A stretch of DNA of 64,000 bases from Candidatus Limnocylindria bacterium (lineage in GTDB: Bacteria > Chloroflexota > Limnocylindria > P2-11E), in contig DATDNP010000201.1 in NCBI GenBank assembly GCA_036518215.1, positions 24,448 through 88,447 on the forward strand. The letters are read 5' to 3'. The notes beneath the pieces are model-generated. The model saw only the letters and a program-made list of their open reading frames with translations, was not told where the DNA came from and searched no databases. A program made the position numbers and the translations under genes. This document shows positions 11,114-59,826 of this stretch, in pieces; positions within the stretch are counted from its first letter, which is position 1; each line of letters opens with the position of its first letter.

Positions 11114-11154
11114 CGTCGCGTCAGGCCTTCGCCTCGCATAGAGTCCTTCGTCAC

Positions 11155-11976: not shown

Positions 11977-12026
11977 GGGCGCCGAGGCGCGTACCGTCGT
12001 AGGGAGACCGTGGCTGGAGGACCGAC

Positions 12027-14427: not shown

Positions 14428-14429
14428 CG

Positions 14430-14933
14430 CTAATCGTTCGCTTCGGTCGCGCCGGTGCGCAGGCCTCCCTGCCCCATATGGGCCTTGAGCGCCTTCGCGA
14501 CATTCGCCGGGACGTACGCGTCCACGGGCGCGCCGAACGCGACGAGCTCCTTCACGCGCGAGGCGGAGAGGAACAGGTACTCCGGCGCGGTCATGAGGTA
14601 GACCATCTCGACGCCCGGCGCGAGCGTGCGGTTCATGTTCCCCATCTCGAACTCGAACTCGAAGTCGGAGAGCGCGCGGATCCCGCGGATGATGAAGGCG
14701 GCGCCGCACGCCTTCGCGAAATCGACCTGGAGGCCGTCGAAGGGCCGGACCTCCACGTTGTCGAGCGTGCGGCACGCCTCGGTCATGAGCGCGACGCGCT
14801 CGTCCGCCGTGAACACCGTCTTCTTCGCGAGGTTGCGGCCGACGCCGACGACGACGCGGTCGAAGAGACGCGCCGAGCGCTCGACGATGTCGACATGGCC
14901 GTTCGTCGGGGGATCGAAGGATCCGGGGTACAT
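14430..14933 (-). CDS. coaD: Phosphopantetheine adenylyltransferase
   Basis: MAMYPGSFDPPTNGHVDIVERS carries the T/HxGH nucleotidyltransferase motif. About 167 aa. Start at the ATG at 14931-14933, not 15215. Confidence 0.9.
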   Translation of the reverse strand: MYPGSFDPPTNGHVDIVERSARLFDRVVVGVGRNLAKKTVFTADERVALMTEACRTLDNVEVRPFDGLQVDFAKACGAAFIIRGIRALSDFEFEFEMGNMNRTLAPGVEMVYLMTAPEYLFLSASRVKELVAFGAPVDAYVPANVAKALKAHMGQGGLRTGATEAND

Positions 14934-15067
14934 GGCCACGCGCTGCTTCACGCGGTCGCGCCTCCTTCTTACTGGTAGTGCACGCCGCCGCGAATCGTAG
15001 CGCTTACTGCGGAGCCGAAGGCGAAGAAGCAGGACGGTCATGCGACGCAATGCGTCGCATGAGCCAC

Positions 15068-20109: not shown

Positions 20110-20687
20110 TCCTGCGCCGCATCCTCGCGACCACCGCGTCCACCGTCTTCGTCGTCGGCGCGCTTGCCTCGTGTGGAGGCGGCACCGGCGAGACGCCCAA
20201 CAGCAACGCCAACGCGGCGCCGTCGACGCCCGCGCAAACGCAAGCGTCGGCAGCACCGCAGAAGGCGACGTTCCTCATCCTGCAGGGCGACACGGTCCGC
20301 AGCCCGGAGAACCTCACTGACGAGGAGAAGACATTCCTCTCCTGCGTCCAGCAGAGCCGCTTCCCGCAGGGCTCGCGCATCGTGTGGCGCTACCGCGTGC
20401 TCGACCCGACCACGAACACCGCGCTCGATGACAAGGCGATCAAGTCCTTCGATCTCATCCTCCCGGATGGCTCGAAGGTCGCATTCAAGTACGGCGGCCA
20501 CGGCGGCACGAAGCCCAACTACGCCGAGTACTTCTGGACCGCGGGCTTCAGCATCCCGGCCGACTACCCCACGGGTCTCTTCAACTATCAGGTCAAGGCA
20601 GTGAGCGCTGAAGGCGCGACGGGCTCCTTCGATCAGTTCAAGGTCGCCGCCGCCCAGCTCACCGTCGTCAAGGCCGGAACGAGGTAA
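20106..20687 (+). CDS. Lipoprotein (hypothetical)
   Basis: ATG overlaps the upstream stop (ATGA). Signal peptide plus lipobox (LASCGGG). No family recognised. Confidence 0.55.
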   Translation: MILRRILATTASTVFVVGALASCGGGTGETPNSNANAAPSTPAQTQASAAPQKATFLILQGDTVRSPENLTDEEKTFLSCVQQSRFPQGSRIVWRYRVLDPTTNTALDDKAIKSFDLILPDGSKVAFKYGGHGGTKPNYAEYFWTAGFSIPADYPTGLFNYQVKAVSAEGATGSFDQFKVAAAQLTVVKAGTR

Positions 20688-20692
20688 ATGAC

Positions 20693-22198
20693 ATGAGGCG
20701 TCTCGCCGTCGCGTTCGCAGCGGCAACACTCCTCGCAGCATGCAGTACGAGCGCAACTCCGTCCGCGCGGAGCCAAGATGTTGCGTCGGCCAAGCCGACC
20801 GCGACCGTGGCGGCGAGCGCCGCCTCATCCGCAGCTCCAAGCGCATCCACGCAGCCGATGGAGGTCGTCGGCAAGTTCGGGCTCGATCCGGCGCATGGAC
20901 CGTGGGACACGAAGGTCTCGGCGACGGCGACGGGCATGAAGGCGAACACGAAATACGACCTCGTCTGGGTCACCGGCAAGGTGACATGGAAGCTCTCGGA
21001 TGACAAGAGCAAGTACCTCGGTCGCGACGCGAAGATCGTGCAGAACACGATCACGAGCGTGACGACCGATGGGAACGGCGCGTTCACGACCCAGTTCGCG
21101 GTGCCGCGCGGCTTCGGCTACGGGCACGACGTGCTGGTCGTCGACGCGGACAAGGTCATCCGCAACAAGGGTCTCTTCGACGTGGACATGACGACGACGA
21201 TCAGCCCGACGAGTGGGCCGGTCGGGACGCCGATCACCGTCGAGGTGAAGGGCATCGGATACCAGGCCTACCAGAACAGCTTCCAGCTCGACTACGACAA
21301 CGAGTACACCGGTTGGGTCTCGTCGGTCACGACCGACGGCTACGCGAAGTTCGTCATCCCGGCGACCGGAGCGGTCGGCACGCACATCATCACGCTCGGC
21401 CACTCCGACTTCGGCGCGCCGTACATGAACCCGCAGCAGCAGCCGGTCGTCGCGTCGCGGCCGTTCCCGCACATCCCATTCACCGTCACCGACGGCGCGG
21501 CCGTGATGCCGAGCGCCGCCGACAAGCAGGGATTCGCCCCGATCGCGGGTAAGCCCGTGACGCAGGGGATCTGGTCAGAGCCGTACGCGACCACCGTCGG
21601 CGCGCCCGTGACCCTGAGCGCGAAGGCGCTTCCCGCGAACAGCGACATCGAGATCTTCTGGACGACGCAGGTCGGCAACCGCTCCGTCACCGGTTTCGAG
21701 GAGCGCACCTCATCGCTCGGCAAGACGAAGACGGACGCCAGCGGCTCGTTCAGCTGGTCGTTCAACATGCCCGACGATCTCGGCGGCACTCACACGGTCA
21801 CGGCGAAGCTCGGTGACAAAGAGGTCGCGAAGACGACCGTGTACATCCTCGCCCAGGCGTTCCCGCTCGACGTGACGCAGGGGCCCGCCGGTACGAAGAC
21901 GACGCTCCACCTCAAAGGCGCCGGCTGGACCGAGACCGAGCAGATCTACCACGTGGTCGTCGACAACGCCTACACCGGCTACGCGTGCGCCTTCAACAGC
22001 AAGGGCGACGTGACGGTCTACCTCACGATGTCCGGCGCGCCCGGGTGGCACTACATCGACATGTACCCGGGCATCTACCAGGGTCCGGCCGACGCGAAGC
22101 CTGCGGACTTCAAGATCCCGCAGCTCACCGCCGACACCGACCACCCGGGCGAGAAGCTTCCCATCTTCCGCTGGGCGTTCTACATCTCCGCGTCCTGA
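20693..22198 (+). CDS. Large lipoprotein with three Ig-like (IPT/Big-type) repeats (hypothetical)
   Basis: Lipobox (LLAACSTS). Three internal repeats of about 90 aa (..GPVGTPITVEVKGIGY.., ..GAPVTLSAKALPANSDIEIFW.., ..GPAGTKTTLHLKGAGW..). No heme (CxxCH) or obvious copper motifs. Confidence 0.55.
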   Translation: MRRLAVAFAAATLLAACSTSATPSARSQDVASAKPTATVAASAASSAAPSASTQPMEVVGKFGLDPAHGPWDTKVSATATGMKANTKYDLVWVTGKVTWKLSDDKSKYLGRDAKIVQNTITSVTTDGNGAFTTQFAVPRGFGYGHDVLVVDADKVIRNKGLFDVDMTTTISPTSGPVGTPITVEVKGIGYQAYQNSFQLDYDNEYTGWVSSVTTDGYAKFVIPATGAVGTHIITLGHSDFGAPYMNPQQQPVVASRPFPHIPFTVTDGAAVMPSAADKQGFAPIAGKPVTQGIWSEPYATTVGAPVTLSAKALPANSDIEIFWTTQVGNRSVTGFEERTSSLGKTKTDASGSFSWSFNMPDDLGGTHTVTAKLGDKEVAKTTVYILAQAFPLDVTQGPAGTKTTLHLKGAGWTETEQIYHVVVDNAYTGYACAFNSKGDVTVYLTMSGAPGWHYIDMYPGIYQGPADAKPADFKIPQLTADTDHPGEKLPIFRWAFYISAS

Positions 22199-26073: not shown

Positions 26074-26529
26074 CTAGTGACGCGCCGCCTGCTGCGGCAG
26101 CATCCCCTCCGCGTTGCGGATGCGGCGAGTGAGGATCGGGAGCAGCGCGAGCGCGAGCTGCGGGTGGCTCTCGAGGATCCCCTTGAAGTGCCAACGCTGG
26201 ATCCCGAGCGCGGTCGTCGGCTCCGTCGCGCGGACGCTCGCCGATCGCGGGAACTCATCGAGGAGCGCCATCTCGCCGACGACGTCGCCCGGACCGAGGG
26301 TCGCGAGCTTCGTCTCGTGCCCGTCCTTTTCCTGGACGACCTCGACCTTGCCGCTCCGGATGATGAACGCGCCGACGCCGGTGTCGCCCTGACGCATGAT
26401 GAGCTGGCCGGCCTGATAGGTCTGCTCGACGGCCGCGTTCGCGATCGCGTCGAGCGACCGCTGGTCGAGGTCCTCGAACCACGCGACGCGCTTCAGGAAT
26501 TCGGTGTTCGGTGCTGCCACGCGCGGCAT
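26074..26529 (-). CDS. Stand-alone cyclic-nucleotide-binding (CNB) domain protein
   Basis: A CNB fold follows the start at MPRVAAPNTEFLKRV, with the GEMALL and RSA.VRA phosphate-binding-cassette motifs. The 5' extension to 26718 was rejected. Confidence 0.7.
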   Translation of the reverse strand: MPRVAAPNTEFLKRVAWFEDLDQRSLDAIANAAVEQTYQAGQLIMRQGDTGVGAFIIRSGKVEVVQEKDGHETKLATLGPGDVVGEMALLDEFPRSASVRATEPTTALGIQRWHFKGILESHPQLALALLPILTRRIRNAEGMLPQQAARH

Positions 26530-31420: not shown

Positions 31421-31990
31421 TTGCACGCATCGGTCATCCCGTCGATCAACGATCTCGGCGGGCTCGTCACCTATCTCTTCCGCAATCCCTACCTGTTCAT
31501 CTCGTCGACCACGGTGATGACGAGCGGGCTCCTGCTCGGTGCCGTCGTCGTGAGCATGCTTCCGCGCCGGCTCGGCATCATGCACGCCGTCGCCCCGACG
31601 CTCGCCGTGATCCTCGCCTACTTCGGGTTCGGGAGCTTCGCGCTCTCCACGGAGATCCTGCTGCGATTCCACAGCAGCATCCCCTACGAGACCGAGGTGC
31701 AGTTCGTGAGCGGCGTCGGGCATCTCCTCGAGGCGCTCGTCGGACTCGCCGTGCTGTTCCCGCACGTGCGCGATCACACGAAGCTCGAGTGGCTGTGGGC
31801 GCACACGGTCGCCCTCACCTACTGGACGTTCCAGGTCGCCGTCCTCACGCCGCCGTGGTTCTCGTTCCAGGGGCAGCGCGAGCTCGTGACCATGAGCGCG
31901 CTCCTCATGCTCGCGATCGCCGGAGGCGTGAACGCCGCGCTGTGGGTCCGTGCGGCGCGGCAGGCGCGGCGCCCTGTGGCGGTGCGGTGA
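31421..31990 (+). CDS. Hypothetical polytopic membrane protein
   Basis: TTG start. About 5 hydrophobic helices. No family recognised. The stop overlaps the tRNA 3' end. Confidence 0.4.
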   Translation: MHASVIPSINDLGGLVTYLFRNPYLFISSTTVMTSGLLLGAVVVSMLPRRLGIMHAVAPTLAVILAYFGFGSFALSTEILLRFHSSIPYETEVQFVSGVGHLLEALVGLAVLFPHVRDHTKLEWLWAHTVALTYWTFQVAVLTPPWFSFQGQRELVTMSALLMLAIAGGVNAALWVRAARQARRPVAVR

Positions 31991-32060
31991 GCCGCCCGGG
32001 ATTCGAACCCGGAACCAAAGGATTAAAAGTCCTCTGCTCTGCCGTTGAGCTAGCGGCCCG
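31988..32060 (-). tRNA. tRNA-Lys (anticodon UUU)
   Basis: The reverse complement folds as a cloverleaf. Acceptor GGGCCGC/GCGGCTC (one G-U pair), D-arm GCTC..GAGC, anticodon stem GAGGA/TCCTT, loop CTTTTAA, T-arm CCGGG-TTCGAAT-CCCGG, discriminator A. CCA is not encoded. Confidence 0.85.
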
Positions 32061-32240
32061 CGCTCACAGATTGTCGTCCTGAGCGGCCCTGTCCGGGAAC
32101 GCCTGACACGACGCCGGGCTCCTGCTCTACAGCCACCCTCCTGTGTCGCTCCTATGACGTTCGACCGGCCACGGCGATGGACGACGTCGATCGAAGGGTG
32201 CGGCATCCTTCGGGCCGATTCGGGGGGAAGGAGGTGTGAG

Positions 32241-32828
32241 ATGTCAAAGGAAGCCATCGCAAAGGTCATCCAGCGCTCGGTCAGTGACGCGGCGTTCCGC
32301 GGGCAGCTCGCGACGGACCCAGCGGGCGCGCTCCGCGGTTACGACCTCACCGATGATGAGAAGGCGGCGCTCCGGTCGCCCGACGCGCGGCGTTTGAGCG
32401 GTTACGGCGTCGACCAGCGCATGAGCAAGGCGTTCGTTCTCGGATTCGGCACCGCGGCAGTCACCGCCGTCACATCGAGCGACCTGCACGGCACGGTGCA
32501 GAGCCCCGACGCGGCCGAACGCAACATGCCGTTCCTCGCGACGGAGAGCACAAGCGGCGTGCAGAGTCCAGACGCGATCGATCGCAACGCGGCGTTCAGC
32601 GCCGACGCGACCAGCGGGACGACCGCGCAGGAGCCCAGGGACATCGCCCCGGTCGACATCGGCGGCACGGATTCGATCGTCCCGTCCGACGCCGGCCACG
32701 GTCTGCGCGGCGATCTGCTCGAAGGCGGCATGATCGACGAGGGCGCGACGATGGGCGTCGAGACGCACGACGCCTCCGGTCTGGTACCGCCGGGCGGCGA
32801 CAGCGCCGACACGAACATCGAGCCCTGA
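32241..32828 (+). CDS. Protein with a Nif11/NHLP-like N-terminal leader domain and a Ser/Thr/Asp/Gly-rich C-terminus (paralog of the gene at 63704)
   Basis: MSKEAIAKVIQRSVSDAAFRGQLATDPAGALRGYDLTDDEKAALRS resembles Nif11 / nitrile-hydratase-leader-peptide RiPP precursor domains. The C-terminal 120 aa are low-complexity with no Cys. Confidence 0.5.
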   Translation: MSKEAIAKVIQRSVSDAAFRGQLATDPAGALRGYDLTDDEKAALRSPDARRLSGYGVDQRMSKAFVLGFGTAAVTAVTSSDLHGTVQSPDAAERNMPFLATESTSGVQSPDAIDRNAAFSADATSGTTAQEPRDIAPVDIGGTDSIVPSDAGHGLRGDLLEGGMIDEGATMGVETHDASGLVPPGGDSADTNIEP

Positions 32829-32942
32829 GCAGCACGCGTCTCGAAGGAGCGGCTTTCAGCGAGCCGCTCCTTCCGCATCCAGGCGACCGAGCGAGCGCTC
32901 AGCGAGACGACGCACGCCTCTCGCCTCTATCGTTCACGACCC

Positions 32943-33752
32943 ATGGACACGACGGTGCAGTCCACCGCGGACGCGAGCCAGGTCAGCGAAGGCATCTACG
33001 TCTACTGCATCATCGAGAGCCCCGAGTCGCGGACGTTCGGGAAGATCGGCATCGGCGGTCGCGGCGACGACGTGTTCACCGTCCATTACAAGGAGCTCGC
33101 CGCGGTCGTGAGCCGGACGCCGCTCATGGTGTACGACCCGACCCGGGAGAACGCGCTCACCCACGAGCACGTGAACGAGATCGTGATGATCGACAACGGC
33201 TTCACGCCCGTGCCGATGAGCTTCGGGACGCTGTTCAAGACCGAGGACGACATCGTCGAGTTCCTGAAGGACACGTACGACGCGCTGCGCGACGTGCTCC
33301 GGAAGATGAAGGACAAGCTCGAGTTCGGTCTCAAGGTGAACTGGGACCGCGACATGGTGCTCGCGGACGTGGAACGCGACTACGAGGAGATCCGGCGGCT
33401 GAAGGCGCAGATCGAGAGCGATCAGCAGAGCTCCACGTACTTCGCTCGCATGCAGCTCGGCCGTCTCGTCGAGCAGGCGCTCGCCGAGAAGTCCGAGACG
33501 TTCGTCCGCGAGATCTACGACGAGCTTCGGGAAGCCGCGATCGCCTCGCGCTCGAACAAGGTCATCGGCGATCGCATGATCATGAACGCCGCGTTCCTCG
33601 TCGAACGCGAGAAGGCCGACTTCTTCGACAAGAAGGTGCAGGAGATCGGCCGGCGCTACGAGGGCAAGCTGAAGTTCACGTACACCGGTCCATGGCCGCC
33701 GTACAACTTCGTCACGATCCGGCTGCAGCTGGAGCGGAGCGCCGGGGTCTAG
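32943..33752 (+). CDS. gvpF: Gas vesicle protein GvpF/GvpL family
   Basis: GIYVYCIIESPE... at the N-terminus and TYTGPWPPYNFV at the C-terminus are hallmarks of the GvpL_GvpF family. Confidence 0.85.
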   Translation: MDTTVQSTADASQVSEGIYVYCIIESPESRTFGKIGIGGRGDDVFTVHYKELAAVVSRTPLMVYDPTRENALTHEHVNEIVMIDNGFTPVPMSFGTLFKTEDDIVEFLKDTYDALRDVLRKMKDKLEFGLKVNWDRDMVLADVERDYEEIRRLKAQIESDQQSSTYFARMQLGRLVEQALAEKSETFVREIYDELREAAIASRSNKVIGDRMIMNAAFLVEREKADFFDKKVQEIGRRYEGKLKFTYTGPWPPYNFVTIRLQLERSAGV

Positions 33753-33754
33753 CC

Positions 33755-34081
33755 GTGCTCCTGCGCCTGCTCACCCTCCCCATCAGCGGTCCCATCGCCG
33801 GCATCCGCTACTGCCTCGAGAAGGTCGTCGAGGTCGCGGACCGCGAGATGTGGGACGAGGAACCCGTGCGCGAGCAGCTCATCCTCGTGAACCAGGCGTA
33901 CGAAGAGGGACGTCTTCCCGAAGAGGACTTCCGCGAGCGCGAGGCCGAGCTCCTCGCACGGCTCCGCGAGATCCGCGAGCACACGAAGGCGCGGGCGCGC
34001 GCCGACGCGGAAGCGCAGGCGGGCGCCGCGGTCGACGAGAAGCGTCGCGTCGTCATCGACGTCCCGGACGAGCTCGAGTGA
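33755..34081 (+). CDS. gvpG: Gas vesicle protein GvpG
   Basis: GTG start (VLLRLLTLPISGPIAGIRYCLEKVVEVADREMWDE...EEGRLPEEDFREREAELLARLREIRE) matches the GvpG pattern. The upstream extension from 33692 was rejected. Confidence 0.75.
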   Translation: MLLRLLTLPISGPIAGIRYCLEKVVEVADREMWDEEPVREQLILVNQAYEEGRLPEEDFREREAELLARLREIREHTKARARADAEAQAGAAVDEKRRVVIDVPDELE

Positions 34082-34106
34082 GCCGCACGCGTCCGGCGGC
34101 GCGCGC

Positions 34107-34883
34107 ATGACGCTGCAGTACGTGTACGGCATCGTCCCCGCCGCCGAGGCGAACGCCGTCGACGGCGCGGCGATCGCCGGCCTCGATGGAGGTCGCGTGC
34201 GAACGATCGTCGAAGGCCCGTTCGCCGCGGCCACGAGCGAGGTGAGCGCGGAGGAGTACGGGAGCGCGTCGCTCAACGATCGCGTCGCGGATCTCGAGTG
34301 GCTCACGCCGCGGGCCGCGACCCATCAGGCCGTGAACATGCGTCTCCTCGACGTCGCCGGCACCGTCCTTCCGCTCGCGTTCGGCGCGCTCTACCACGAC
34401 GATGCGCGCGTCCGCGGGATGCTGCGGGAGGACCTCTCGTCGCGAAGCGCGCGCATGCGCGAGCTCGCGGGGCGCGCCGAATGGGTCGTCACGGTGTCGC
34501 GCGAGGTAAGCGCGGTCGCCGCGGCCGACGAGGACGTCCATGCGCTCGAAGAGGAGATCGCGAAGGCGACACCCGGCAAAGCGTTCCTGCTCGAGCGAAG
34601 GCGCGCGAGCGTCGCGAGCGCGGCCGGCGAGCGCGCCGACGCGGATGCCGCGCGACGCGCGCTCGCGCTCCTCACTCCGGTGAGCGAGCGGACGTATCGC
34701 GAGCCCGTGGCGCGCGGTGGCACGGATGTCGTCGTGCTCCGCGTGTCGCTCCTCGCGGCGCGCGACCGCAGCGACGCGGTGGACGGCGCGATCGCCGCGG
34801 TCCGCGAGGACCTCGCCGGCGCGGGATACCACGTGCGCGCGACGGGTCCCTGGCCGGCATACCGCTTCGGATCGCTGCCGTGA
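34107..34883 (+). CDS. gvpL: Gas vesicle protein GvpL/GvpF family (second copy)
   Basis: TLQYVYGIVPAAEA... at the N-terminus and ATGPWPAYRFGSLP at the C-terminus. Confidence 0.85.
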   Translation: MTLQYVYGIVPAAEANAVDGAAIAGLDGGRVRTIVEGPFAAATSEVSAEEYGSASLNDRVADLEWLTPRAATHQAVNMRLLDVAGTVLPLAFGALYHDDARVRGMLREDLSSRSARMRELAGRAEWVVTVSREVSAVAAADEDVHALEEEIAKATPGKAFLLERRRASVASAAGERADADAARRALALLTPVSERTYREPVARGGTDVVVLRVSLLAARDRSDAVDGAIAAVREDLAGAGYHVRATGPWPAYRFGSLP

Positions 34884-35077
34884 GGGACGACGTCGCGACA
34901 ACCGAGATCCCGCTCGTCGAGATCATCGACCGGCTGCTCGACCGAGGCGTCGTGCTCGCCGGCCGCGCCGTGATCTCCGTCGCAGGCGTCGATCTCATCG
35001 AGCTCCGTCTCAACGTCGTGCTCGCCTCGGTCGACGCGCTCGCGCGGAGCGATCGGCGGATCGCGGAGCCGAGGTGA
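34880..35077 (+). CDS. Small GvpA/GvpJ-family protein (GvpS-like)
   Basis: GTGA overlap with the gvpL stop. 65 aa. LVEIIDRLLDRGVVLAGRAVISVAGVDLIELRLNVVLASVDAL matches the GvpA/J core. Confidence 0.7.
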   Translation: MRDDVATTEIPLVEIIDRLLDRGVVLAGRAVISVAGVDLIELRLNVVLASVDALARSDRRIAEPR

Positions 35078-35721
35078 CGCTCCTCGTCCGCGCGATCGTT
35101 CGGGCGAGCGATCTCGACCGCGTGGCCACCGACGACGACATCGTCGCGATCCGCGCGGCCGACCTCGCCGCGCTGGCTTCGCGCATCGACGGGCCCGTGA
35201 GCGCGACCGAGAGCGCGCTGCGCGGCCACGACTCGCTCACGCGGAGCATCCACGAGCGCGTCGCCTCGCTGCCGGCTCGCTTCGGCCAGCTGTTCGAGAG
35301 CGAGGACGACGTGGTCGCGGCGATCGAAGCGCGCGCCGCGACGCTTCGCGAGGGGATCGCGACCGTCGACGGACGCGTCGAGGTGGCGATCACGTTGCGA
35401 TGGCGCGAGCTCTCGCGGCCCAGCGCGAGCGTCGACGGGTCACCCGGACATGCGTACATGGCGCAGCGCGCGGCGGATCTCGCGCTCGCACGCCGAGCGG
35501 AAGCGATCGCCGCACGCCTCGTCGACGAGATGGCATACGAGCGAGCGCATGCACGTCTCAAGACTTGCCCGCGGCCGGGGGTGGCAGCGATAGTTGCCAT
35601 CTTGGTCGACCGAGACGACGTGAGCGACGTGCGCGAGCGCGTCCGCTCGTTCGGAGCCTGTTCGAGCGAAGTCACCGCCAGCGTGGACGGCGTCTTCGCT
35701 CCGTACTCGTTCGCGTCGTGA
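35074..35721 (+). CDS. Gas vesicle protein GvpF/GvpL family (third, divergent copy)
   Basis: GTGA overlap. LLVRAIVRASDL... at the N-terminus and VDGVFAPYSFAS at the C-terminus parallel the two other GvpF/L copies. Confidence 0.65.
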   Translation: MTLLVRAIVRASDLDRVATDDDIVAIRAADLAALASRIDGPVSATESALRGHDSLTRSIHERVASLPARFGQLFESEDDVVAAIEARAATLREGIATVDGRVEVAITLRWRELSRPSASVDGSPGHAYMAQRAADLALARRAEAIAARLVDEMAYERAHARLKTCPRPGVAAIVAILVDRDDVSDVRERVRSFGACSSEVTASVDGVFAPYSFAS

Positions 35722-36035
35722 CCGACCTCACGCTCGAGCTCGAGGAAGTGCGCGCGGAGCTCGCGCGGGTGAGCGCGCAGCTTCCCGAGCGTATCGACGT
35801 CGACCCGGACGACGTGGAGCGGGGCCTCGCCGGTCTCGTGCTTGGACTCGTGGAGCTGTTGCGGCAGGTGCTGGAGAAGCAGGCCGTGCGACGGATGGAG
35901 GGTGGGAGCTTGACGGATGAAGAGATCGAGCGGGTCGGCCTCGCGCTCATGAGGCTCGAGCGGAAGGTGCGCGAGCTCGCTGAGCACTTCGGCCTCACCG
36001 AGGACGACCTCCGGCTCGGGCTGGGCGCGTCATGA
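35718..36035 (+). CDS. gvpK: Gas vesicle protein GvpK
   Basis: GTGA overlap. DVDPDDVERGLAGLVLGLVELLRQVLEKQAVRRME matches the GvpK pattern. 105 aa. Confidence 0.75.
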   Translation: MTDLTLELEEVRAELARVSAQLPERIDVDPDDVERGLAGLVLGLVELLRQVLEKQAVRRMEGGSLTDEEIERVGLALMRLERKVRELAEHFGLTEDDLRLGLGAS

Positions 36036-36337
36036 CGCTGGATAGGCGGCTCCGCGACACGGAAACATCCGCGACCCTCGTCGACCTTCTCGATCGCGTG
36101 CTCGACAAGGGACTCGTCGTGGCCGGCGACGTGAGCATCTCGCTCGCGAACGTCGAGCTGCTCACGATCCGCATCCGCCTCCTGGTGTGCTCGATCGACA
36201 AGGCGGAGCAGATCGGACTGAACTGGTGGCGTTACGAATCACAGCTCTCGCGCCGCGACGGTGAGTCCGACGAGGTGAAGCGCCTCGAGGCGCGCATCGC
36301 CGAGCTCGAGGCGCAGCTGAAGCGAAAAGGGGGATGA
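36032..36337 (+). CDS. gvpJ: Gas vesicle protein GvpJ (GvpA/J family)
   Basis: ATGA overlap. [45 protein letters not shown]-terminal coiled-coil tail. Confidence 0.8.
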   Translation: MTLDRRLRDTETSATLVDLLDRVLDKGLVVAGDVSISLANVELLTIRIRLLVCSIDKAEQIGLNWWRYESQLSRRDGESDEVKRLEARIAELEAQLKRKGG

Positions 36338-36340
36338 GAC

Positions 36341-36622
36341 ATGGCGGTCGTTGAGCGGAGCCCGGGTGGCAGCAGCCTTATCGATGTCCTCGATCGCGTG
36401 CTCGACAAGGGCATCATCATCGACGCGTGGGTGCGGGTCTCCCTCGTCGGGATCGACCTCATCACCGTCGAAGCCCGTGTCGTCGTCGCGTCGATCGACA
36501 CCTACCTTCGCTACGCGGATGCGCTCGGCCTCACGCAGGGTCGTGGGCAGAGCAGCATCGGGGCGAGCGGCGGAGGCTTGGACACAGCGACGGGCCGGTC
36601 GCGCGAGCGCGAGCGCTCGTAG
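36341..36622 (+). CDS. gvpA: Gas vesicle structural protein GvpA
   Basis: [52 protein letters not shown] is the near-canonical GvpA core. Confidence 0.9.
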
Positions 36623-36631
36623 CCGCCCGCG

Positions 36632-38650
36632 ATGCGGGACGTCGTCGAGCGTCCGAGCGATCTCATGCCGGACGCGCGCGAGACGCTCGAGCCGATGCTC
36701 GACGATCTCGTGCGCGGACTCGGGTATGAGCGCGCGCTCATCCTCGTCCACGACGAGACCGCCGGCGCGCTCCGAGGCCTGTTCGGGCTGAACGTCCGCG
36801 ACGAGCAGGCACGTTCGGTCCTGCTGCCGCTCGCACGCGCGAACGATCCGTTCGTGACGGCGCTCCGCTCCGGCGTGCCACAGCTCGTCGATGACGTCGC
36901 GACGGACGACCGCCTCGACGACGCGGAGCGCAGCGCGCTCCTCGCGATGCGCATCACGCGCTGCGTCGCCGCCTCGCTCCCCGTGACGCACCGAGAGCGC
37001 ACGAGCACGATCGTCCTCCTCGGTCGCGAGGGCGCCATCACCGAGGCCGACCTCGAGCGTCTCCTTCCCTTCGCGCGCCAGGCCGGTGCCGCATTCACAC
37101 GAGAGCAGGACGTCGAGCTCCTCCGCCGCGCGTCCGAGTCGCACGCGATCGAGAAGGAATGGCTCTGGTGGATGCTGAACGGCGTCGACGACCCCGTCGT
37201 CGTCGCGGACGCGAAGAACGACATCCTCCACTTCAACCGCCGCGCGGAGCACCTCTTCCGCGCGTCGGATGAGGACAGCCCCGGAAAGCGGCGTGCCGTC
37301 TGGATGAACAACTTCCTCTTCACGGCGTCGCTCTCGACGTGGAGCCTCGACCGGACGAGCCGCGCCACGAGCCGCGAGGTGACGCTCGTCGACCCGATCG
37401 ACGGAAGCGAGCTCATCTTCGAGGTGCTGACGGCCGCGGCGCTGAACCACCGCACCGGAGAGCGCGGCACCGTCGCGGTGCTCAAGGACGTCACGAACAT
37501 CCGCCACATGACTCAGGAGCTCACGCGCAGCGCCGAGCGCATCCAGAGCGCCGACGTTGAGATACGCGCCGAGCGCGACAGGCTCGACCTCGTCCTCCGG
37601 AGCGTGCCGAACCCGATCATCGTCGTCGACAACGACAACCAGATCATCTCGATGAACGCGGCAGCGCAGCGGCTCTTCACGCGCACCGAGGGCCGAGCAC
37701 AGCACGCGCTCGCCAACGACGCGAAGTTCACATCGTTCCTCGCGGAGCTGCGCCTCGACCCGACGCGCGAGAAGCGCACCGAGCTGCTGCTCATCGATCC
37801 CCTCACCGAGGAGCGCCTCGAGATGGAGGTGACCGCGACCGAGGTCCGCGATCAGCACGGTGCCGTCGTCGCGATCGTCTCCGCGATGCAGGAGGTCGGC
37901 CGCTTGCGCGAGCTCGAGCGGCGACGGCTGCAGCAGGTGCTCTTCGAGACCGAGAAGCTCGCCGCCACCGGGCGTCTCGCGGCGTCGATCGCGCACGAGA
38001 TCAACAACCCGCTCGAGGCCGTCCAGAACGCGCTCTATCTGCTCGGCACGTCGGTCGCGAAGGACGGTCAGGAGCGCGAGTACCTCGGCATCGCGCAGCG
38101 CGAGACGCAGCGGATGTCGCGGATCCTTCGACAGATGCTCGGCTTCTACAAGCCGATGACCGCCATGGGCACGCTCGACGTGAACGTGCTCGTCGACGAG
38201 GCCGAGGCGCTCGTCGCGAAGCGCATCCGACAGTCCAAGGTGACGCTGGTCCGCGAGCTCGATCCGAACCTCCCGAAGATCCGCGCCTCCGCCGACCAGC
38301 TGAAGCAGGTGCTCCTCAACCTCTACCTCAACGCGCTCGAGGCGATGCCGAACGGCGGCACGCTCACCGTGGTCACGCGCGGCGGCAACGATCTCGACCT
38401 GCCCTTCGATTCGGTCCGGATCGAGGTGCGCGATACGGGCACGGGCATGGACGAGCAGACGCAGGCCCGGATCTTCGAAGCCTTCTTCTCCACGAAGGAG
38501 CAACGCGGCACCGGCCTTGGCCTCTGGGTATCGCACGGCATCGTGCAGGGGCATGGCGGCACGATGAAGGTGCGCAGCAAGCCGGGACAGGGTGCGACGT
38601 TCGTCATCGCGCTGCCCGTCGCCGGGCCGCCGGAGGTACGCGATGGCTGA
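36632..38650 (+). CDS. Cytoplasmic GAF-PAS-PAS sensor histidine kinase
   Basis: N-terminal GAF. Two PAS-like regions. H-box (LAASIAHEINNPLEAV), N-box (LNLYLNALEAM) and G-boxes (DTGTGMD, GTGLGLWVS). It starts 10 nt after the gvpA stop. Confidence 0.85.
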   Translation: MRDVVERPSDLMPDARETLEPMLDDLVRGLGYERALILVHDETAGALRGLFGLNVRDEQARSVLLPLARANDPFVTALRSGVPQLVDDVATDDRLDDAERSALLAMRITRCVAASLPVTHRERTSTIVLLGREGAITEADLERLLPFARQAGAAFTREQDVELLRRASESHAIEKEWLWWMLNGVDDPVVVADAKNDILHFNRRAEHLFRASDEDSPGKRRAVWMNNFLFTASLSTWSLDRTSRATSREVTLVDPIDGSELIFEVLTAAALNHRTGERGTVAVLKDVTNIRHMTQELTRSAERIQSADVEIRAERDRLDLVLRSVPNPIIVVDNDNQIISMNAAAQRLFTRTEGRAQHALANDAKFTSFLAELRLDPTREKRTELLLIDPLTEERLEMEVTATEVRDQHGAVVAIVSAMQEVGRLRELERRRLQQVLFETEKLAATGRLAASIAHEINNPLEAVQNALYLLGTSVAKDGQEREYLGIAQRETQRMSRILRQMLGFYKPMTAMGTLDVNVLVDEAEALVAKRIRQSKVTLVRELDPNLPKIRASADQLKQVLLNLYLNALEAMPNGGTLTVVTRGGNDLDLPFDSVRIEVRDTGTGMDEQTQARIFEAFFSTKEQRGTGLGLWVSHGIVQGHGGTMKVRSKPGQGATFVIALPVAGPPEVRDG

Positions 38651-39803
38651 GACCTGCATCCTCGTCGTCGACGACGAGCAGAGCGTAGCGACGACGATCG
38701 AAGCGATCCTGCGGCTCGACGGCCACGACGTCGTGGCGGTCACGAGCGGCACCGAGGCGATCCGCCTCCTCGGCGAGCGGCAATTCGACGTCGTCCTCAC
38801 GGACCTACGCCTCGCCGACATGGATGGCATCGAGATCCTGAAGGAGGTGCAGCGGACGGCGCCGGAGACGGCGGCCATCATGCTCACCGGCTACGCGTCG
38901 CTCGAATCCGCCATCGCCGCGCTACGGTCGGGCGCGTACGACTACCTGCTCAAGCCCTCCGACGTGGAGGAGCTGCGGGCGACGGTGAATCGCGCGATCG
39001 AGCGCCGGCAGCTCCGCCGACGGCTCCTCGAGCTCGAAGAGGTCGACCGGCTGAAGACGCAATTCCTTTCGATGGTGTCGCATGAGCTCCGCACCCCGCT
39101 CACCGCCGTGAGCGGGTTCGTGCAGGTCGCGCGGCGACGCATCGCGCGCGCGCTCGAAGGGGGCGGTGCGATCGATTGGCAGCAGGAGGCGGTGCGCACC
39201 GCGGAGACGCTCGACCTCGCGCAGCGTCAGTCGCGGCGCCTCGCGCGCCTCGTCGACGAGCTGCTCGACGTGTCGCGGCTCCAGCTCGGGCGGATCGAGC
39301 TCCACCCGGCCGAGATCGACATCGTCGATGACGTGAGAGAGGTCGTCGAGCGCATGAAGCTCCTCGTGTCGACGCACGACTTCCAGTTCCGCTCGGACAT
39401 CGAGCAGGGTCGCGTCATCGCCGATCGCGACCGGCTCGACCAGGTCTTCGAGAACCTCATCGGGAACGCGGTGAAGTACTCGCCGGCGGGCGGCACGATC
39501 GGCGTCATCGTCGGCGCCGTCGGCGACGACGTGCACGTCGCGATCAGCGATCAGGGGATCGGCATCTCGCGCGACGAGCTCGACCGCATCTTCAATCTCT
39601 TCTATCGCTCGCCCGATCCGCGCGCCGGGCACGTCGGCGGGCTCGGCCTTGGTCTCTACATCAGCCGCGACATCGTGACGCGCCACGGCGGGAGACTGTG
39701 GGCGGAGAGCGATGGCGAGGGGAGCACGTTCCACGTCAGCATCCCGCTCGCGAGCACGGGCACGACGGGCGTCACAGCCCGCGCAGGAGCGACGACAGCC
39801 TGA
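38643..39803 (+). CDS. Hybrid protein: N-terminal receiver domain fused to a histidine kinase (REC-HisKA-HATPase_c)
   Basis: REC (ILVVDDEQ...VLTDLRLADMDG...KPSDVEEL), H-box ([16 protein letters not shown]) and G-boxes (DQGIGI, GLGLGLYIS). It overlaps the upstream kinase stop. Confidence 0.85.
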   Translation: MAETCILVVDDEQSVATTIEAILRLDGHDVVAVTSGTEAIRLLGERQFDVVLTDLRLADMDGIEILKEVQRTAPETAAIMLTGYASLESAIAALRSGAYDYLLKPSDVEELRATVNRAIERRQLRRRLLELEEVDRLKTQFLSMVSHELRTPLTAVSGFVQVARRRIARALEGGGAIDWQQEAVRTAETLDLAQRQSRRLARLVDELLDVSRLQLGRIELHPAEIDIVDDVREVVERMKLLVSTHDFQFRSDIEQGRVIADRDRLDQVFENLIGNAVKYSPAGGTIGVIVGAVGDDVHVAISDQGIGISRDELDRIFNLFYRSPDPRAGHVGGLGLGLYISRDIVTRHGGRLWAESDGEGSTFHVSIPLASTGTTGVTARAGATTA

Positions 39804-40029
39804 CCCCGAGCCGCTTCGCGATGTGCGCGAGCGCGGGAAGCGTCGGCGTGACGCGGCCGGTCTCCATCTTCCAGACGTACTGCTTCTCGAAGTACACGCG
39901 ACCGCGTCGATCCGTACCGAGCTCGGCCATGGTGAGACCCTGCTTCTGGCGCAGCGCGCGGATGCGCTCACCCACCCGCTTCGCGAGGAGCGGCTCACCG
40001 GGCACGTCTGGGTGCACGCGCGCCGGCAT
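39772..40029 (-). CDS. XRE-family helix-turn-helix transcriptional regulator
   Basis: 85 aa. LAKRVGERIRALRQKQGLTMAELG...LPALAHIAKRLGVRLSSLL is an HTH_XRE. Start at the internal ATG at 40027-40029. The rest of ORF 39772..40782 is a frame shadow of the hydrolase gene. Confidence 0.7.
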   Translation of the reverse strand: MPARVHPDVPGEPLLAKRVGERIRALRQKQGLTMAELGTDRRGRVYFEKQYVWKMETGRVTPTLPALAHIAKRLGVRLSSLLRGL

Positions 40030-40655
40030 CAGAGTCCTCTCGTGACGAAGTCGACGATGGCCGTGATCGCTTCGTCGCCGTAGGGCGCCGCGAACATCCC
40101 GCGCGAGTGCTCCTTGCCGCCGAACATGAGGAGCGTCTTCGGATGTGACGCGACGGTGAACGCGCGCAGCACGTGCTGGCCAGCACCGAGCGAATCTTCG
40201 TCGGCGCACACGAACAGCTTGCGGCCGGTGACGCGACGCGTCAGCTCGTCCGGCGTGTCCTGCACGGGCGCGGAGACGGACACGACGCACTCCACGTCCG
40301 CGTCGAAGCTCGACGCGAGGACGGCGTGGCCTCCCATCGACGCGCCGACGAGCGCGATCTCGGCCGCGCCGCGCTCCCGGAGGAGCGCCTTCGCCGCGCG
40401 CAGATCGATGACCGGCGACCACGGCGCGGGCGGTGCCCAGGCGTTCGTCGTTCCCGTCGACCCGTCGTATCCACGAAGGTTGAGGGTGAGTGCGGGAACG
40501 CCCCGCGCCGCGAAGCGGGGCGCGATGTCGCGCCAGCCGCTCCCGTCCCAACCGGATCCGTGGACGAGGATCACCGCGCGCGAAGCGGGCAGCTCGCCAT
40601 AGAGATCCGCCTGGAGCGTCTCGTCCCCGCTCGTGATCCGCACGGTGACCGCCAT
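40029..40655 (-). CDS. Alpha/beta hydrolase (dienelactone-hydrolase-like)
   Basis: LVHGSGWDGSGW..., the GASMGG nucleophile elbow, and a C-terminal His. 208 aa. Confidence 0.65.
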   Translation of the reverse strand: MAVTVRITSGDETLQADLYGELPASRAVILVHGSGWDGSGWRDIAPRFAARGVPALTLNLRGYDGSTGTTNAWAPPAPWSPVIDLRAAKALLRERGAAEIALVGASMGGHAVLASSFDADVECVVSVSAPVQDTPDELTRRVTGRKLFVCADEDSLGAGQHVLRAFTVASHPKTLLMFGGKEHSRGMFAAPYGDEAITAIVDFVTRGL

Positions 40656-40681
40656 GCGCGAATGGTGCTACAAACGAACGG

Positions 40682-43048
40682 ATGGCTCGCACGGTGGAGG
40701 CGGACGCCGCGCGCCTCTTCACGGACGCCCGGAGCGCCTTCCCGTTGTGGGAGGTCACGAAGGATGTCCTCGACGAATTCATCGACCTCTCGCTGAACTA
40801 CCGTCAGAGCGGTCACCCGGGCGGCTCGCGTTCGAAGGTCCATCTCCTTCTCGCGCTCATGCTCACCGGCGCGATGCGCTACGACGTCCTTCGGCCGTGG
40901 CGGCCCTTCGCCGACCGCTTCGTGCTCTCCGCCGGTCACACGATCCCGCTCGTGTATTCGACGCTCGCCGTCATGAATGAAGCGCTGCGCGCCCGGCGCG
41001 AACGAGATGGCGACCCGCGATTCGCGTTCCCCTTCGACGGCAGGTACGCGCTCACCTGGGAGGACCTTCTCCTCCTACGACGCAACAAGGGGCTTCCGGG
41101 GCACGCCGAATTCGCCGGCAAGACGCTTTTCGTGAAGGCGAACACGGGGCCGTCGGGACACGGCATGCCGCCGTCGGTCGGTCAGGCGGCCGCGCTGAAG
41201 CTGGCGGGCTGCGAAGAGGTGAAGGTCTTCGTCGTCGAGGGCGAGGGCGGCCTCACGCCCGGGGCGTCGCACGAATCCAAGAACTCGGCCTGGGGGCTCG
41301 GGCTCTCGAACCTCGTGTTCCTCGTGGACTGGAATGACTTCGGCATCGACGAGAACGCGCTCTCGACGGTCGTCCACGGCAGCCCCGTCGACTGGTTCGA
41401 GCCATATGGGTGGCGCGTCCTCGGCACGGAGCACGGTATGGAGTGGGAGGACGTGACCCGCATCGTCACGGAGGTCGCGCGCGGCGAGAATCCCACGAAG
41501 GTCCCCAGCATGGCGTGGTTCAAGACTCGCAAGGGACGCGGCTACGCGAAGTACGACTACAAGTCACACGGCTCGCCGCACGCGATGAACAGCGAGCCGT
41601 TCTGGGGGCTGCGCAAGGAATTCATGAACAAGTACGGCGTCGAGTACGAAGGCGTCGACCAGAACGCGCCCGCCGATCCCGCCGCGACGGCGGCGCAGGC
41701 GCGCCGCAACTTCGCGATCGCGGCGTCCGCGCTCCGCAAGCGGATGGACGTCGTCGAGTACCTCTCGGACCGGCTCGTCGAGATCGGCGAGACCGTGCCC
41801 GACCGTGTCGCGTCGTTCACGCTCGGCGGCCGCGGCGCGGGGCTGTTCTCCGACGAGCGCCTCTTCGACTTCGAGCACTACCCGGCGGGGATGTGGGCGA
41901 AGCCGGGCGAGAAGAAGCCGAACCGCGCCGCGCTCGGCACCTGGGGCGCGTGGGTGAACTCGTTCGCGAAGAAGGAGTACGGGCGTCCGCTCGTCATCGC
42001 GATGTCCGCGGACCTCGCTGAGTCGACGAACATCGCGGGCTTCATGAAGGGCTTCGAGGACATGGAGGGCTGGGGCTGGTACCAGCGGGACGCGAACCCG
42101 CGCGGCACGCTCCTTCCGCAGCAGATCACGGAGTTCACGAACGCGGGCATCGCGTGCGGCATCGCGAGCGTGAACCTCGCCGACGATCCGTTCGGCGATT
42201 ACAACGGCCTCTGGGGCGCATGCTCGACGTACGGCTCGTTCTCCTATCTGAAGTACGGCGAGATGCGGCTCTTCAGCCAGCTCGCGCAGGACTGCGACCT
42301 GAGGGTCGGCAAGGTCATTTGGGTCGCGGGGCATTCCGGTCCCGAGACCGCCGAGGACTCGCGCACGCACTTCGGCATCTTCGAGACGGGCGTGACGCAG
42401 CTCTTCCCCGACGGCGCCGTCGTCGACGTGCATCCGTGGGAGCACAACGAGGTCCCGGTCGTGCTCGCGGCCGCGCTCCGGCAAAAGGCGCCGATCGTCG
42501 CGATCCACCTCACGCGGCCCGCGGTCGATATCCCCGATCGTGCGGCGCTCGGCATGCCGTCGCACTTCGCCGCGGCGCGCGGCGCGTACGTGATGCGCGC
42601 GTACGCGCCAGGGCAGCCGAAGATGGGCACGGTGTTCGTGCAGGGGACGTCGACGACCGCGAACGTCGTGAAGATCCTCCCGAAGCTCGCCGAGCGCGGC
42701 CTCAACGTGAAGATCGTCGCAGCGATCAGCCCGCAGCTCTTCGCGCTGCAGGACGCGACCTACCGCGAGAGCGTCGCTTCCGACGCCGATCGCATCGACG
42801 CGATGGTGATCAGCAACCGCGCGCGCCGCGTCATGAGCGACTGGATCGCGCATCCCATCGTCGCCGAGTACTCGCTCACGTCCGACTGGGACGATCGCTG
42901 GCGGACCGGCGGCTCGGTGGACGAAGTCGTCGCCGAGGCACACCTCGATCCGGAGCACCTCCTCGCGGGGATCGAGCGCTTCTGCCGGGAGCGCGCGGAG
43001 CGCTTGCGCCGCCTGCGTGGCGCGATCGAGGCCGCGGAGCGCGGCTAG
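40682..43048 (+). CDS. Transketolase-family thiamine-diphosphate enzyme (788 aa, with insertions)
   Basis: TK N-terminal motif (RQSGHPGGS...DRFVLSAGH), ThDP-binding (VVEGEGGLTPGASHES), and pyrimidine-binding and C-terminal domains in order. Confidence 0.7.
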   Translation: MARTVEADAARLFTDARSAFPLWEVTKDVLDEFIDLSLNYRQSGHPGGSRSKVHLLLALMLTGAMRYDVLRPWRPFADRFVLSAGHTIPLVYSTLAVMNEALRARRERDGDPRFAFPFDGRYALTWEDLLLLRRNKGLPGHAEFAGKTLFVKANTGPSGHGMPPSVGQAAALKLAGCEEVKVFVVEGEGGLTPGASHESKNSAWGLGLSNLVFLVDWNDFGIDENALSTVVHGSPVDWFEPYGWRVLGTEHGMEWEDVTRIVTEVARGENPTKVPSMAWFKTRKGRGYAKYDYKSHGSPHAMNSEPFWGLRKEFMNKYGVEYEGVDQNAPADPAATAAQARRNFAIAASALRKRMDVVEYLSDRLVEIGETVPDRVASFTLGGRGAGLFSDERLFDFEHYPAGMWAKPGEKKPNRAALGTWGAWVNSFAKKEYGRPLVIAMSADLAESTNIAGFMKGFEDMEGWGWYQRDANPRGTLLPQQITEFTNAGIACGIASVNLADDPFGDYNGLWGACSTYGSFSYLKYGEMRLFSQLAQDCDLRVGKVIWVAGHSGPETAEDSRTHFGIFETGVTQLFPDGAVVDVHPWEHNEVPVVLAAALRQKAPIVAIHLTRPAVDIPDRAALGMPSHFAAARGAYVMRAYAPGQPKMGTVFVQGTSTTANVVKILPKLAERGLNVKIVAAISPQLFALQDATYRESVASDADRIDAMVISNRARRVMSDWIAHPIVAEYSLTSDWDDRWRTGGSVDEVVAEAHLDPEHLLAGIERFCRERAERLRRLRGAIEAAERG

Positions 43049-56436: not shown

Positions 56437-56523
56437 GAACGGTCGCGGCCCGCCGATCTCGCGAGCGTTACGGCGGCGCCTGACGCGATACAGGCGGGCC
56501 TAGCATGCGGGCGGAGGGAGCGG

Positions 56524-59500: not shown

Positions 59501-59826
59501 TCTTCAACCTCCTGTCGAACGCCGTGAAGTTCACGCCGGATGGCGGCACAATCAGCCTTCACGTGCGCCGCGAGGCCGGCGGGTTGTGCTTCGCGGTGTC
59601 GGACACGGGGATCGGGATCGCGCCGGAGGATCAGGTGAAGGTGTTCGAAGAATTCCGTCAGGTCGGCCGCGAGCGCGCGCGCGAAGGGACCGGGCTGGGC
59701 TTGACGCTCACAAAGCGCTTCGTCGAGCTCCATGGCGGCCGGATCTGGGTCGAGAGCGAGACGGGAAAGGGCAGCACGTTCTCGTTCACCCTTCCGCTGA
59801 CGCAGCCGTCGGCGGCGCCGGCATGA
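56524..59826 (+). CDS. Membrane sensor histidine kinase with an extracytoplasmic sensor domain, three GAF domains and a kinase core (1100 aa)
   Basis: TM helix at about aa 15-35 and again at about aa 290-312, with a ~250-aa extracytoplasmic region between them. Then 3x GAF with the same linker motif and a HisKA-HATPase_c core paralogous to 52081..56436. Confidence 0.9.

Follow-up and report, generated by a model that had tools for sequence, protein, structure and literature searches.

A stretch of 64,000 nucleotides from a Candidatus Limnocylindria bacterium (hereafter the window) carries ten co-directional plus-strand genes (32943-39803), of which the first eight encode gas vesicle proteins (gvp genes) and the last two encode histidine kinases (HK1 and HK2). 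Judged from its sequence, this unit is probably a functional and self-contained operon of soil Limnocylindria. The gvp genes are packed into 3.68 kb (32943-36622) in the order F-G-L-S-F3-K-J-A, where F3 is a third gene of the GvpF/L family. All eight products exceed the Pfam gathering scores (Table 1), which substantiates the eight-gene gvp cluster proposed in the initial annotation of this DNA, and the accessory core of GvpF/L, GvpG, GvpK and GvpJ/M/S-type proteins is complete. The gene calls were made with a GC3 frame plot and a codon-usage gene caller, both of which agree with the genes listed in that annotation. The G+C content is about 70% along the whole window. The GvpF protein has an exact match on a forest-soil metagenome contig, and HK1 has one in a metagenome-assembled genome (MAG) of a Candidatus Limnocylindria bacterium (NCBI HEY6960031.1; Chloroflexota). 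The earlier suggestion of a high-GC, likely non-aquatic bacterium agrees with the forest-soil match of GvpF and with the origin of its relatives, which are soil MAGs.

Table 1. Genes of the ten-gene unit and its predicted expression signals, with window coordinates
Feature	Coordinates	Strand	Basis
-10-like hexamer TATCGT, 9 nt 5' of gvpF ATG	32928-32933	+	predicted promoter of a leaderless or near-leaderless transcript
gvpF, 269 aa	32943-33752	+	Pfam GvpL_GvpF 243.7 bits
gvpG, 108 aa, GTG start	33755-34081	+	Pfam GvpG 67.9 bits, residues 6-72
gvpL-like GvpF/L paralogue, 258 aa	34107-34883	+	Pfam GvpL_GvpF 156.7 bits
gvpS-like small GvpA/J/M-family protein, 65 aa	34880-35077	+	Pfam Gas_vesicle 48.5 bits
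F3, third GvpF/L paralogue, 215 aa	35074-35721	+	Pfam GvpL_GvpF 87.8 bits
gvpK, 105 aa	35718-36035	+	Pfam GvpK 105.8 bits
gvpJ, 101 aa	36032-36337	+	Pfam Gas_vesicle 62.9 bits
Shine-Dalgarno-like GGGGG, 7 nt 5' of gvpA ATG	36329-36333	+	junction sequence
gvpA, major shell protein, 93 aa	36341-36622	+	Pfam Gas_vesicle 59.5 bits; NCBIfam NF006874 114.2 bits
HK1, cytoplasmic GAF-PAS-PAS-HisKA-HATPase histidine kinase, 672 aa	36632-38650	+	Pfam GAF_2, PAS (two stretches), HisKA, HATPase_c
HK2, REC-HisKA-HATPase kinase, 386 aa	38643-39803	+	Pfam Response_reg 99.0, HisKA 61.5, HATPase_c 99.1 bits

Relatives of the unit were collected by a scan of one genome per species, which returned 378 stretches encoding GvpF relatives, and the best 80 of these were analysed. 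They comprise about 50 loci from Limnocylindria/Chloroflexota soil MAGs (GvpF identity to the window 72-88%) and about 30 from Pyrinomonadaceae/Acidobacteriota MAGs (63-67%). Gene order was counted by tblastn of the window proteins against those loci with at least 7.5 kb of sequence after gvpF (n=49). The full order F-G-L-S-F3-K-J-A-HK1-HK2 is present in 35 loci, and in nine others F3 is the one gene that was not detected; these nine have a gap of the size of F3, so F3 is probably there in diverged form. The genes on both sides of the unit differ between subclades. In the subclade of the window, a membrane protein gene and a tRNA-Lys lie upstream, and a helix-turn-helix (HTH) gene, a hydrolase gene and a transketolase-like gene lie downstream, whereas in another subclade plsY, gpsA and a YggX-like iron-trafficking gene are located directly upstream, and a tRNA-Pro (immediately after HK2) and other genes are located downstream. 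The downstream genes of the latter subclade, with a weak LAGLIDADG-like match and a CAP-domain protein among their products, were judged to be unrelated. Since the flanks change, the conserved unit consists of the ten genes, and its recurrence in dozens of soil genomes of two phyla indicates that it is a real and widespread variant.

All ten genes of the unit are under purifying selection. In comparisons of the window with four relatives, in which dS is probably compressed by extreme GC3 bias, the dN/dS ratio was well below 1 for nine of the ten genes: 0.10-0.27 for F, K, J and A (0.14-0.26 for gvpF and 0.11-0.26 for gvpK), 0.23-0.65 for G and S, 0.24-0.41 for the kinases and 0.38-0.54 for L.

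Several loci deserve separate mention. The Acidobacteriota version contains, between gvpG and gvpL, a gene of a 651-aa tandem ArsA-type P-loop ATPase (Pfam ArsA_ATPase 458 bits), located at 11147-13102 in locus L055 and present across the Pyrinomonadaceae loci L051-L081. The ArsA-type protein could act as an alternative assembly ATPase in a gvpN-less cluster. HK2 of this version has an extra C-terminal stretch with receiver similarity, and in L055 a gene of an Rrf2-family regulator follows HK2 (20168-20716). A locus of an uncultured member of the Chloroflexia (L049, 10001-14459, on a 434-kb contig) has gvpF followed directly by gvpA, HK1 and HK2, with no G, L, S, K or J within 10 kb; this may be either a reduced remnant or a split cluster, with the kinases still adjoining gvpA. 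Loci L005, L017 and L030 and protein P0011 are labelled as Acidiferrales, Bathyarchaeia, Saccharimonadales or Verrucomicrobiae, yet they share synteny and 77-84% identity with the Limnocylindria cluster, and L072, a MAG labelled as Thermoanaerobaculia, matches the Acidobacteriota-type loci (GvpF identity 64-65%). These odd labels are probably binning errors and do not name the true hosts.

The product of the last gvp gene is a true GvpA. The initial annotation had allowed that it might fall short of profile thresholds, whereas it passes the NCBIfam model NF006874, for which the cut-off is 100 bits. It shares 68% identity with GvpA of Octadecabacter, 61% with that of Halobacterium and 55% with that of Streptomyces, and has a C-terminal tail of about 27 aa. 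Among the accessory proteins, GvpF is 40% identical to the protein at the GvpF position of the Octadecabacter cluster, GvpG is 42% identical to Streptomyces GvpG, and GvpJ has Streptomyces GvpJ as its top match (48% over 95 aa). The top match of the gvpL-like protein is the 278-aa F/L protein of Octadecabacter that precedes the gvpS-like gene there. The gvpS-like protein of the window is most similar to a 72-aa gvp protein of Octadecabacter (50%) and then to Streptomyces GvpS (42%), and its gene follows L, as gvpS does in Bacillus megaterium and Streptomyces. The top match of F3 is a 240-aa F/L protein of Octadecabacter, which is likewise encoded between the S-like gene and gvpK; a PDB sequence search with F3 returned nothing beyond one marginal GvpF match.

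Genes for GvpN and GvpO were not found. Of the 70 proteins predicted in the window, 67 were searched with Pfam, and none of these has an AAA_5/GvpN, GvpO, GvpC (Gas_vesicle_C) or Hsp20 domain; the Walker A motif is present in no predicted protein. A phmmer search (--max) of the six-frame translation was made with GvpN, GvpO, GvpC, GvpH, GvpI, GvpD, GvpE and Hsp20 seeds, which were annotated proteins of Octadecabacter arcticus pOA238_160, Halobacterium pNRC100 and a Streptomyces plasmid, the GvpC seed being that of Halobacterium; the best E-value was 0.07, and in the same search the GvpA, GvpJ, GvpS and GvpK seeds gave strong matches. As controls, Pfam detected AAA_5 in the seed proteins, and PF05800 detected GvpO of Streptomyces, Octadecabacter and Halobacterium, which makes the negative results for the window meaningful. 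No match to GvpN, GvpO, GvpC or Hsp20 was found within 10 kb of the cluster in the 80 related loci either, in a search whose positive control worked. There are 32.9 kb of window sequence upstream of the cluster and 24.2 kb downstream, which excludes a gvpN or gvpO lying just outside in the same operon, a possibility that the initial annotation had raised.

That annotation made a point of the missing gvpN and gvpO and of the three GvpF/L paralogues. The gene content holds, and the weight given to it was overstated, as each of these features is known elsewhere. GvpN is listed as conserved in all clusters (PMC9501494), and its gene is already known to be missing from the clusters of Streptomyces (PMC4982088). 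The absence of gvpO and the presence of three F/L paralogues are neither of them unusual in bacteria: gvpO is missing as a rule from cyanobacterial and Serratia clusters (gene lists of PMC9501494), and three or more GvpF/L paralogues are also found in Serratia, Octadecabacter and Spartinivicinus.

The genes are tightly joined. Overlaps of 4 nt occur at four consecutive junctions (GTGA at L/S, S/F3 and F3/K, ATGA at K/J), one fewer than the five previously reported for this cluster, and the remaining spacers are 2 nt for F/G, 25 nt for G/L, 3 nt for J/A and 9 nt for A/HK1. The HK1 and HK2 reading frames overlap by 8 nt. A TANNNT hexamer ending 6-12 nt before an in-frame gvpF start, like the one in the window, was found in 29 of 51 Chloroflexota-type loci, against a background of 0.76% per position, and reads TAAAGT in eight relatives. 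This pattern points to an operon transcript that would start at gvpF and be leaderless or nearly so. A generic scan of 31900-40800 for sigma-70 promoters and terminators returned no promoter and a single sub-chance terminator on the wrong strand. The subclade with the yggX-like gene upstream differs: there the stop codon of that gene and gvpF overlap, and a GGAGG motif lies ahead of gvpF. As for translation, a purine-rich Shine-Dalgarno (SD)-like motif is present upstream of gvpA in 45 of 46 Chloroflexota-type loci and is infrequent before other genes of the unit (G 4/47, S 6/44, J 3/25, HK1 0/22). This bias towards gvpA is what would be expected if shell protein has to be made in large excess over the accessory proteins, whose translation would be coupled.

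Another conserved element was noticed upstream of gvpF in L008, L016, L019, L024, L052 and L067: the sequence GACCGAGCGAGCGC is followed, about 12 nt on, by its partial inverse GTCGCTCGCGC, the pair lying 25-60 nt 5' of the -10-like box. In the window, only the left half of the pair is present (around 32885-32898). This element could be an operator or an RNA hairpin.

The two kinases have the architecture stated in the initial annotation, a GAF-PAS-PAS kinase followed by a kinase with a fused receiver, and no membrane segments were predicted in either of them, in line with a cytoplasmic location. HK1 carries the H-box histidine His455 (SIAHEINNPL) and HK2 carries His147; the N, G1 and G2 boxes are intact in both, and the acidic residues of the HK2 receiver are present. 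The kinase core of HK1 is NtrB/ZraS-like, with ZraS as the closest PDB entry (9jfj, E = 1e-39). In an alignment of 53 HK1 orthologues, the two PAS domains equalled the kinase core in conservation (mean frequency of the top residue 0.70 and 0.67, against 0.76 and 0.67); the N-terminal GAF domain is weakly conserved (0.49, with 16-21% identity between phyla). There are 63 invariant residues in the sensor half of HK1, none of which is Cys or His, and this argues against His-ligated haem, LOV-type flavin adducts, bilins and Fe-S clusters. A PDB sequence search with the sensor half gave one marginal GAF match (E = 0.011), from which no ligand was inferred. The fused receiver of HK2 is the only one in the unit: no response regulator with an output domain stands alongside the kinases, and Pfam detected neither a DNA-binding domain nor a sigma-54 activator domain in the ten genes. 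The HTH gene downstream (39772-40029, minus strand) was considered as a possible output regulator and rejected from the unit, being present only in the closest subclade.

The following scheme may be proposed for the unit. Transcription would begin from the -10-like box just 5' of gvpF and yield a leaderless mRNA, on which the accessory genes, having no ribosome-binding sites of their own, would be translationally coupled, while the strong and conserved SD motif at gvpA alone would provide the shell protein in excess; we infer this operon structure and control of stoichiometry from the arrangement of genes and signals. GvpA would form the shell, with GvpJ and GvpS as minor proteins of the GvpA family, and the three proteins of GvpF/L fold would serve assembly, together with GvpG and GvpK. 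HK1 and HK2 would be co-transcribed with the gvp genes. With its two conserved PAS domains, HK1 might sense a cue inside the cell; it might then phosphorylate the receiver of HK2, which in turn might act on a response regulator encoded elsewhere that sets the expression of the operon. As the receiver on HK2 is the only one and no DNA-binding regulator is encoded in the unit, a relay from HK1 through the HK2 receiver to an unlinked regulator is the most economical model. The relay, its target and the shape of the vesicles remain speculative. Small bicone- or spindle-shaped vesicles are to be expected, because a gvpN deletion in Halobacterium leads to tiny vesicles (PMC9501494) and a gvpN mutant of Serratia makes small bicones (PMC4982088). 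The strongest form of this proposal is that an eight-gene module of 3.7 kb, without an ATPase or GvpC, suffices for vesicles and is gated, in abundant soil bacteria (Limnocylindria and, with an ArsA-type ATPase in addition, Pyrinomonadaceae), by a co-inherited two-kinase relay whose Cys- and His-free PAS domains read an intracellular cue; in this form it should be taken as tentative, a possibility and not an expectation.

Several points weigh against a functional, self-contained operon. The ArsA-type ATPase of the Acidobacteriota cluster hints that an ATPase may be needed, in which case Limnocylindria would have to obtain one from elsewhere. The absence of gvpN applies only to the 64-kb window and to 10 kb around the 80 related clusters. 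F3 evolves fast (dN/dS 0.52-0.92). With no DNA-binding response regulator in the unit, the link of the kinases to gvp expression is one of synteny. The gvpN-less cluster of Streptomyces coelicolor was long thought not to make vesicles (PMC4982088).

Alternatively, the system may be a standard one that is split: GvpN, possibly together with proteins like GvpC or GvpO, would be encoded at another place in the genome and act on the cluster, which would then look minimal through the location of its genes only. The reach of the gvpN search, the ATPase retained by the Acidobacteriota cluster and the tiny bicones of the gvpN mutants, which suggest that working flotation might need GvpN, all leave room for such an arrangement, which is nevertheless rather unlikely. 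In all annotated comparison clusters that have gvpN (Octadecabacter, Halobacterium and Spartinivicinus), the gene sits inside the cluster; it was found neither in the window nor within 10 kb of the cluster in the 80 loci of two phyla, and the Streptomyces clusters do without it as well.

The cluster on the Octadecabacter arcticus plasmid pOA238_160 is the best annotated match and has the L-like, S-like, third F/L and K genes in the same order, but gvpN, an Hsp20 gene, gvpO and a fourth F/L gene (360 aa) are additional there, gvpA stands apart on the upstream side, the cluster lacks kinases, and the organism is marine. The gvpAPQBRNFGLSKJTU cluster of Bacillus (Priestia) megaterium shares the F-G-L-S-K-J core order, except for the extra F/L gene between S and K of the window (PMC9501494), but according to its gene list it has gvpN, R, T, U, P and Q, an upstream shell gene and no attached kinases. 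In Halobacterium, the essential set is A, F, G, J, K, L, M and O (PMC9501494, Table 2). The window holds seven of these eight categories, with S standing in for M, and GvpO is absent; F3 may take its place. The proteins C, H, I, N, D and E, also absent from the window, are the non-essential or regulatory ones of Halobacterium (PMC9501494, Table 2). Within the Chloroflexota, vesicles are known only from mesophilic Chloroflexales carrying gvpA and gvpN: in Candidatus Viridilinea mediisalina they were seen by cryo-electron tomography, and GvpN was used as the marker gene (PMC7332563). These are aquatic or mat phototrophs of the same phylum and a different class. Nothing was found in the literature on gas vesicles in Limnocylindria, Ellin6529 or Pyrinomonadaceae/Blastocatellia.

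The Streptomyces coelicolor type of cluster (gvpO-A-F-G-...-J-L-S-K) is also found in soil and at high GC, lacks gvpN and gvpC, and shares with the window the genes A, F, G, J, L, S and K and the C-terminal extension of GvpA (PMC9501494, Table 1; PMC4982088). It differs in opening with gvpO (PF05800, 121.9 bits), of which there is no counterpart in the window or the related loci, and in having two F/L paralogues, gvpA as the first gvp gene after it and no kinases attached, compared with three paralogues and gvpA at the end in the window; identity between the Gvp proteins of the two is 27-55%. For S. coelicolor it was considered that gas vesicles may have another function or that essential genes are missing (PMC4982088). 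A similar explanation may be put forward for the window, namely that the genes are conserved while no buoyant vesicles are made, the product being another GvpA-based assembly or serving a stress-related role, as proposed for streptomycete gvp clusters. A soil habitat, where flotation has no obvious use, and the missing gvpN and gvpC would accord with it. We regard it as unlikely, since GvpA is 61-68% identical to the shell proteins of proven vesicle formers, the gene set corresponds to the essential set of Halobacterium except for O, and an SD motif conserved at gvpA in particular agrees with a shell protein that is made in bulk. In addition, a 2019 paper, cited in the reference list of PMC11657280, reports by its title gas vesicles in a Streptomyces strain.

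That the kinases belong with the gvp cluster is supported by their arrangement and inheritance. The order A-HK1-HK2 is kept in 46 of the 49 loci, in both Chloroflexota and Acidobacteriota, even though both flanks of the unit change. The gap between gvpA and HK1 is 9-124 nt in Chloroflexota loci (mostly below 55 nt, and 9-54 nt in most of them), and HK1 and HK2 overlap by 8-14 nt in nearly all of these. Across 50 loci, the identity of GvpF to its window counterpart correlates with that of HK1 (rho 0.87) and HK2 (0.84), and HK1 with HK2 (0.93), suggesting that the kinases co-diverge with the gvp genes and that the unit is inherited as one piece. Hence it is quite improbable that the kinases are mere neighbours serving an unrelated process and retained by inherited synteny; even the reduced locus L049 has kept F-A-HK1-HK2. 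What can be said for such an accidental association is that no response regulator with an output domain is encoded in the unit, that the window is generally rich in signalling genes, and that the gap between gvpA and HK1 in Acidobacteriota loci (155-244 nt) gives room for a separate promoter. In-cluster signalling proteins have a precedent in Serratia sp. ATCC 39006, where the cluster-encoded GvrA, GvrB and GvrC are needed for expression of the gvpA operon, which is induced at low oxygen; Serratia also has three GvpF paralogues (PMC4982088, PMC6617781). Compared by description, the Serratia regulators differ in being encoded in a second operon together with other gvp genes, in the presence of gvpN and in including an NtrC-type activator (GvrA), whereas in the window two kinases, one with a fused receiver, directly follow gvpA and have no transcription-factor partner.

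A decaying, non-functional remnant of a larger gvp cluster, as the lack of N, O, C and Hsp20 relative to Octadecabacter and the high dN/dS of F3 might suggest, is very improbable and is disfavoured, as all ten reading frames are intact in the window and in dozens of genomes (that of F3 in at least 35 loci), dN/dS is well below 1 for nine of the genes and the translation signals are conserved.

Upstream of the unit, the genes of a 189-aa membrane protein (31421-31990) and of an NHLP/Os1348-like protein (32241-32828, plus strand) were considered as members of the cluster and rejected; the former is absent or at a variable distance in relatives, and so is the latter, which is moreover separated from gvpF by a hairpin (32843-32873, a perfect stem of 13 bp, -29 kcal/mol). 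The first 60 residues of this 195-aa protein match an Os1348 domain resembling precursors of ribosomally synthesised and post-translationally modified peptides (RiPPs) of the NHLP clan (NCBIfam 58.1 bits, cut-off 40; Pfam Frankia_peptide below threshold). Its gene is inserted between tRNA-Lys and gvpF only in the genome of the window, and is not found in the closest relative, L002. The tRNA-Lys(ttt) lies upstream of the gvp unit at 31986-32059 (minus strand) in the window, at 868-940 in L002, at 17128-17202 in L011 and at 17190-17265 in L037, and its distance to gvpF is 115 nt in L002, 880 nt in the window and about 6-7 kb in L005, L019, L021, L028 and L067. The position of the gvp unit at variable spots flanked by tRNA genes is consistent with past mobility. 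An Rfam search revealed one tRNA and nothing else, and a repeat search of 31-41 kb gave only high-GC noise and the paralogy of F and F3.

Elsewhere in the window (52117-63366 and 26074-26529), a dense neighbourhood of cyclic-nucleotide and GAF signalling genes was observed. Two kinases are encoded there (1439 aa with seven GAF domains, and 1100 aa with three of them), along with a stand-alone receiver and a receiver-adenylate/guanylate cyclase. An M50 protease of this neighbourhood carries two cyclic nucleotide monophosphate (cNMP)-binding domains, and another cNMP-binding protein is encoded separately. The upstream half of the window also holds dispersed genes of the coenzyme A pathway (panC, a panE-like gene, coaBC, coaD and the gene of a type III pantothenate kinase; 184-1032, 2844-3677, 12449-14951), which have no connection with the gvp unit.

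Why bacteria living in soil have gas-vesicle genes has long been a puzzle, as flotation makes little sense there and it was long doubted that the gvpN-less clusters of Streptomyces work. The unit described here is a second gvpN-less architecture, unrelated to the Streptomyces type, and relatives of its GvpF occur in several hundred genomes, one per species, from two phyla that are dominant in soil. Surveys that use GvpN as a marker, as in PMC7332563, miss a large share of the gvp-carrying Chloroflexota, including the Limnocylindria type. What is new is a widespread eight-gene gvp set with a dedicated kinase pair; the lack of gvpO or gvpN, three F/L paralogues and cluster-encoded regulators were known already. 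If the proposal is true, this would be, to our knowledge, the smallest natural gas-vesicle gene set known, and its kinases would for the first time allow the question of why soil bacteria retain gas vesicles to be approached through signal transduction. The unit would likewise give access to the dispensability of GvpN and to the soil cue that triggers vesicles, and the 3.7-kb set might serve as a compact acoustic or buoyancy reporter.

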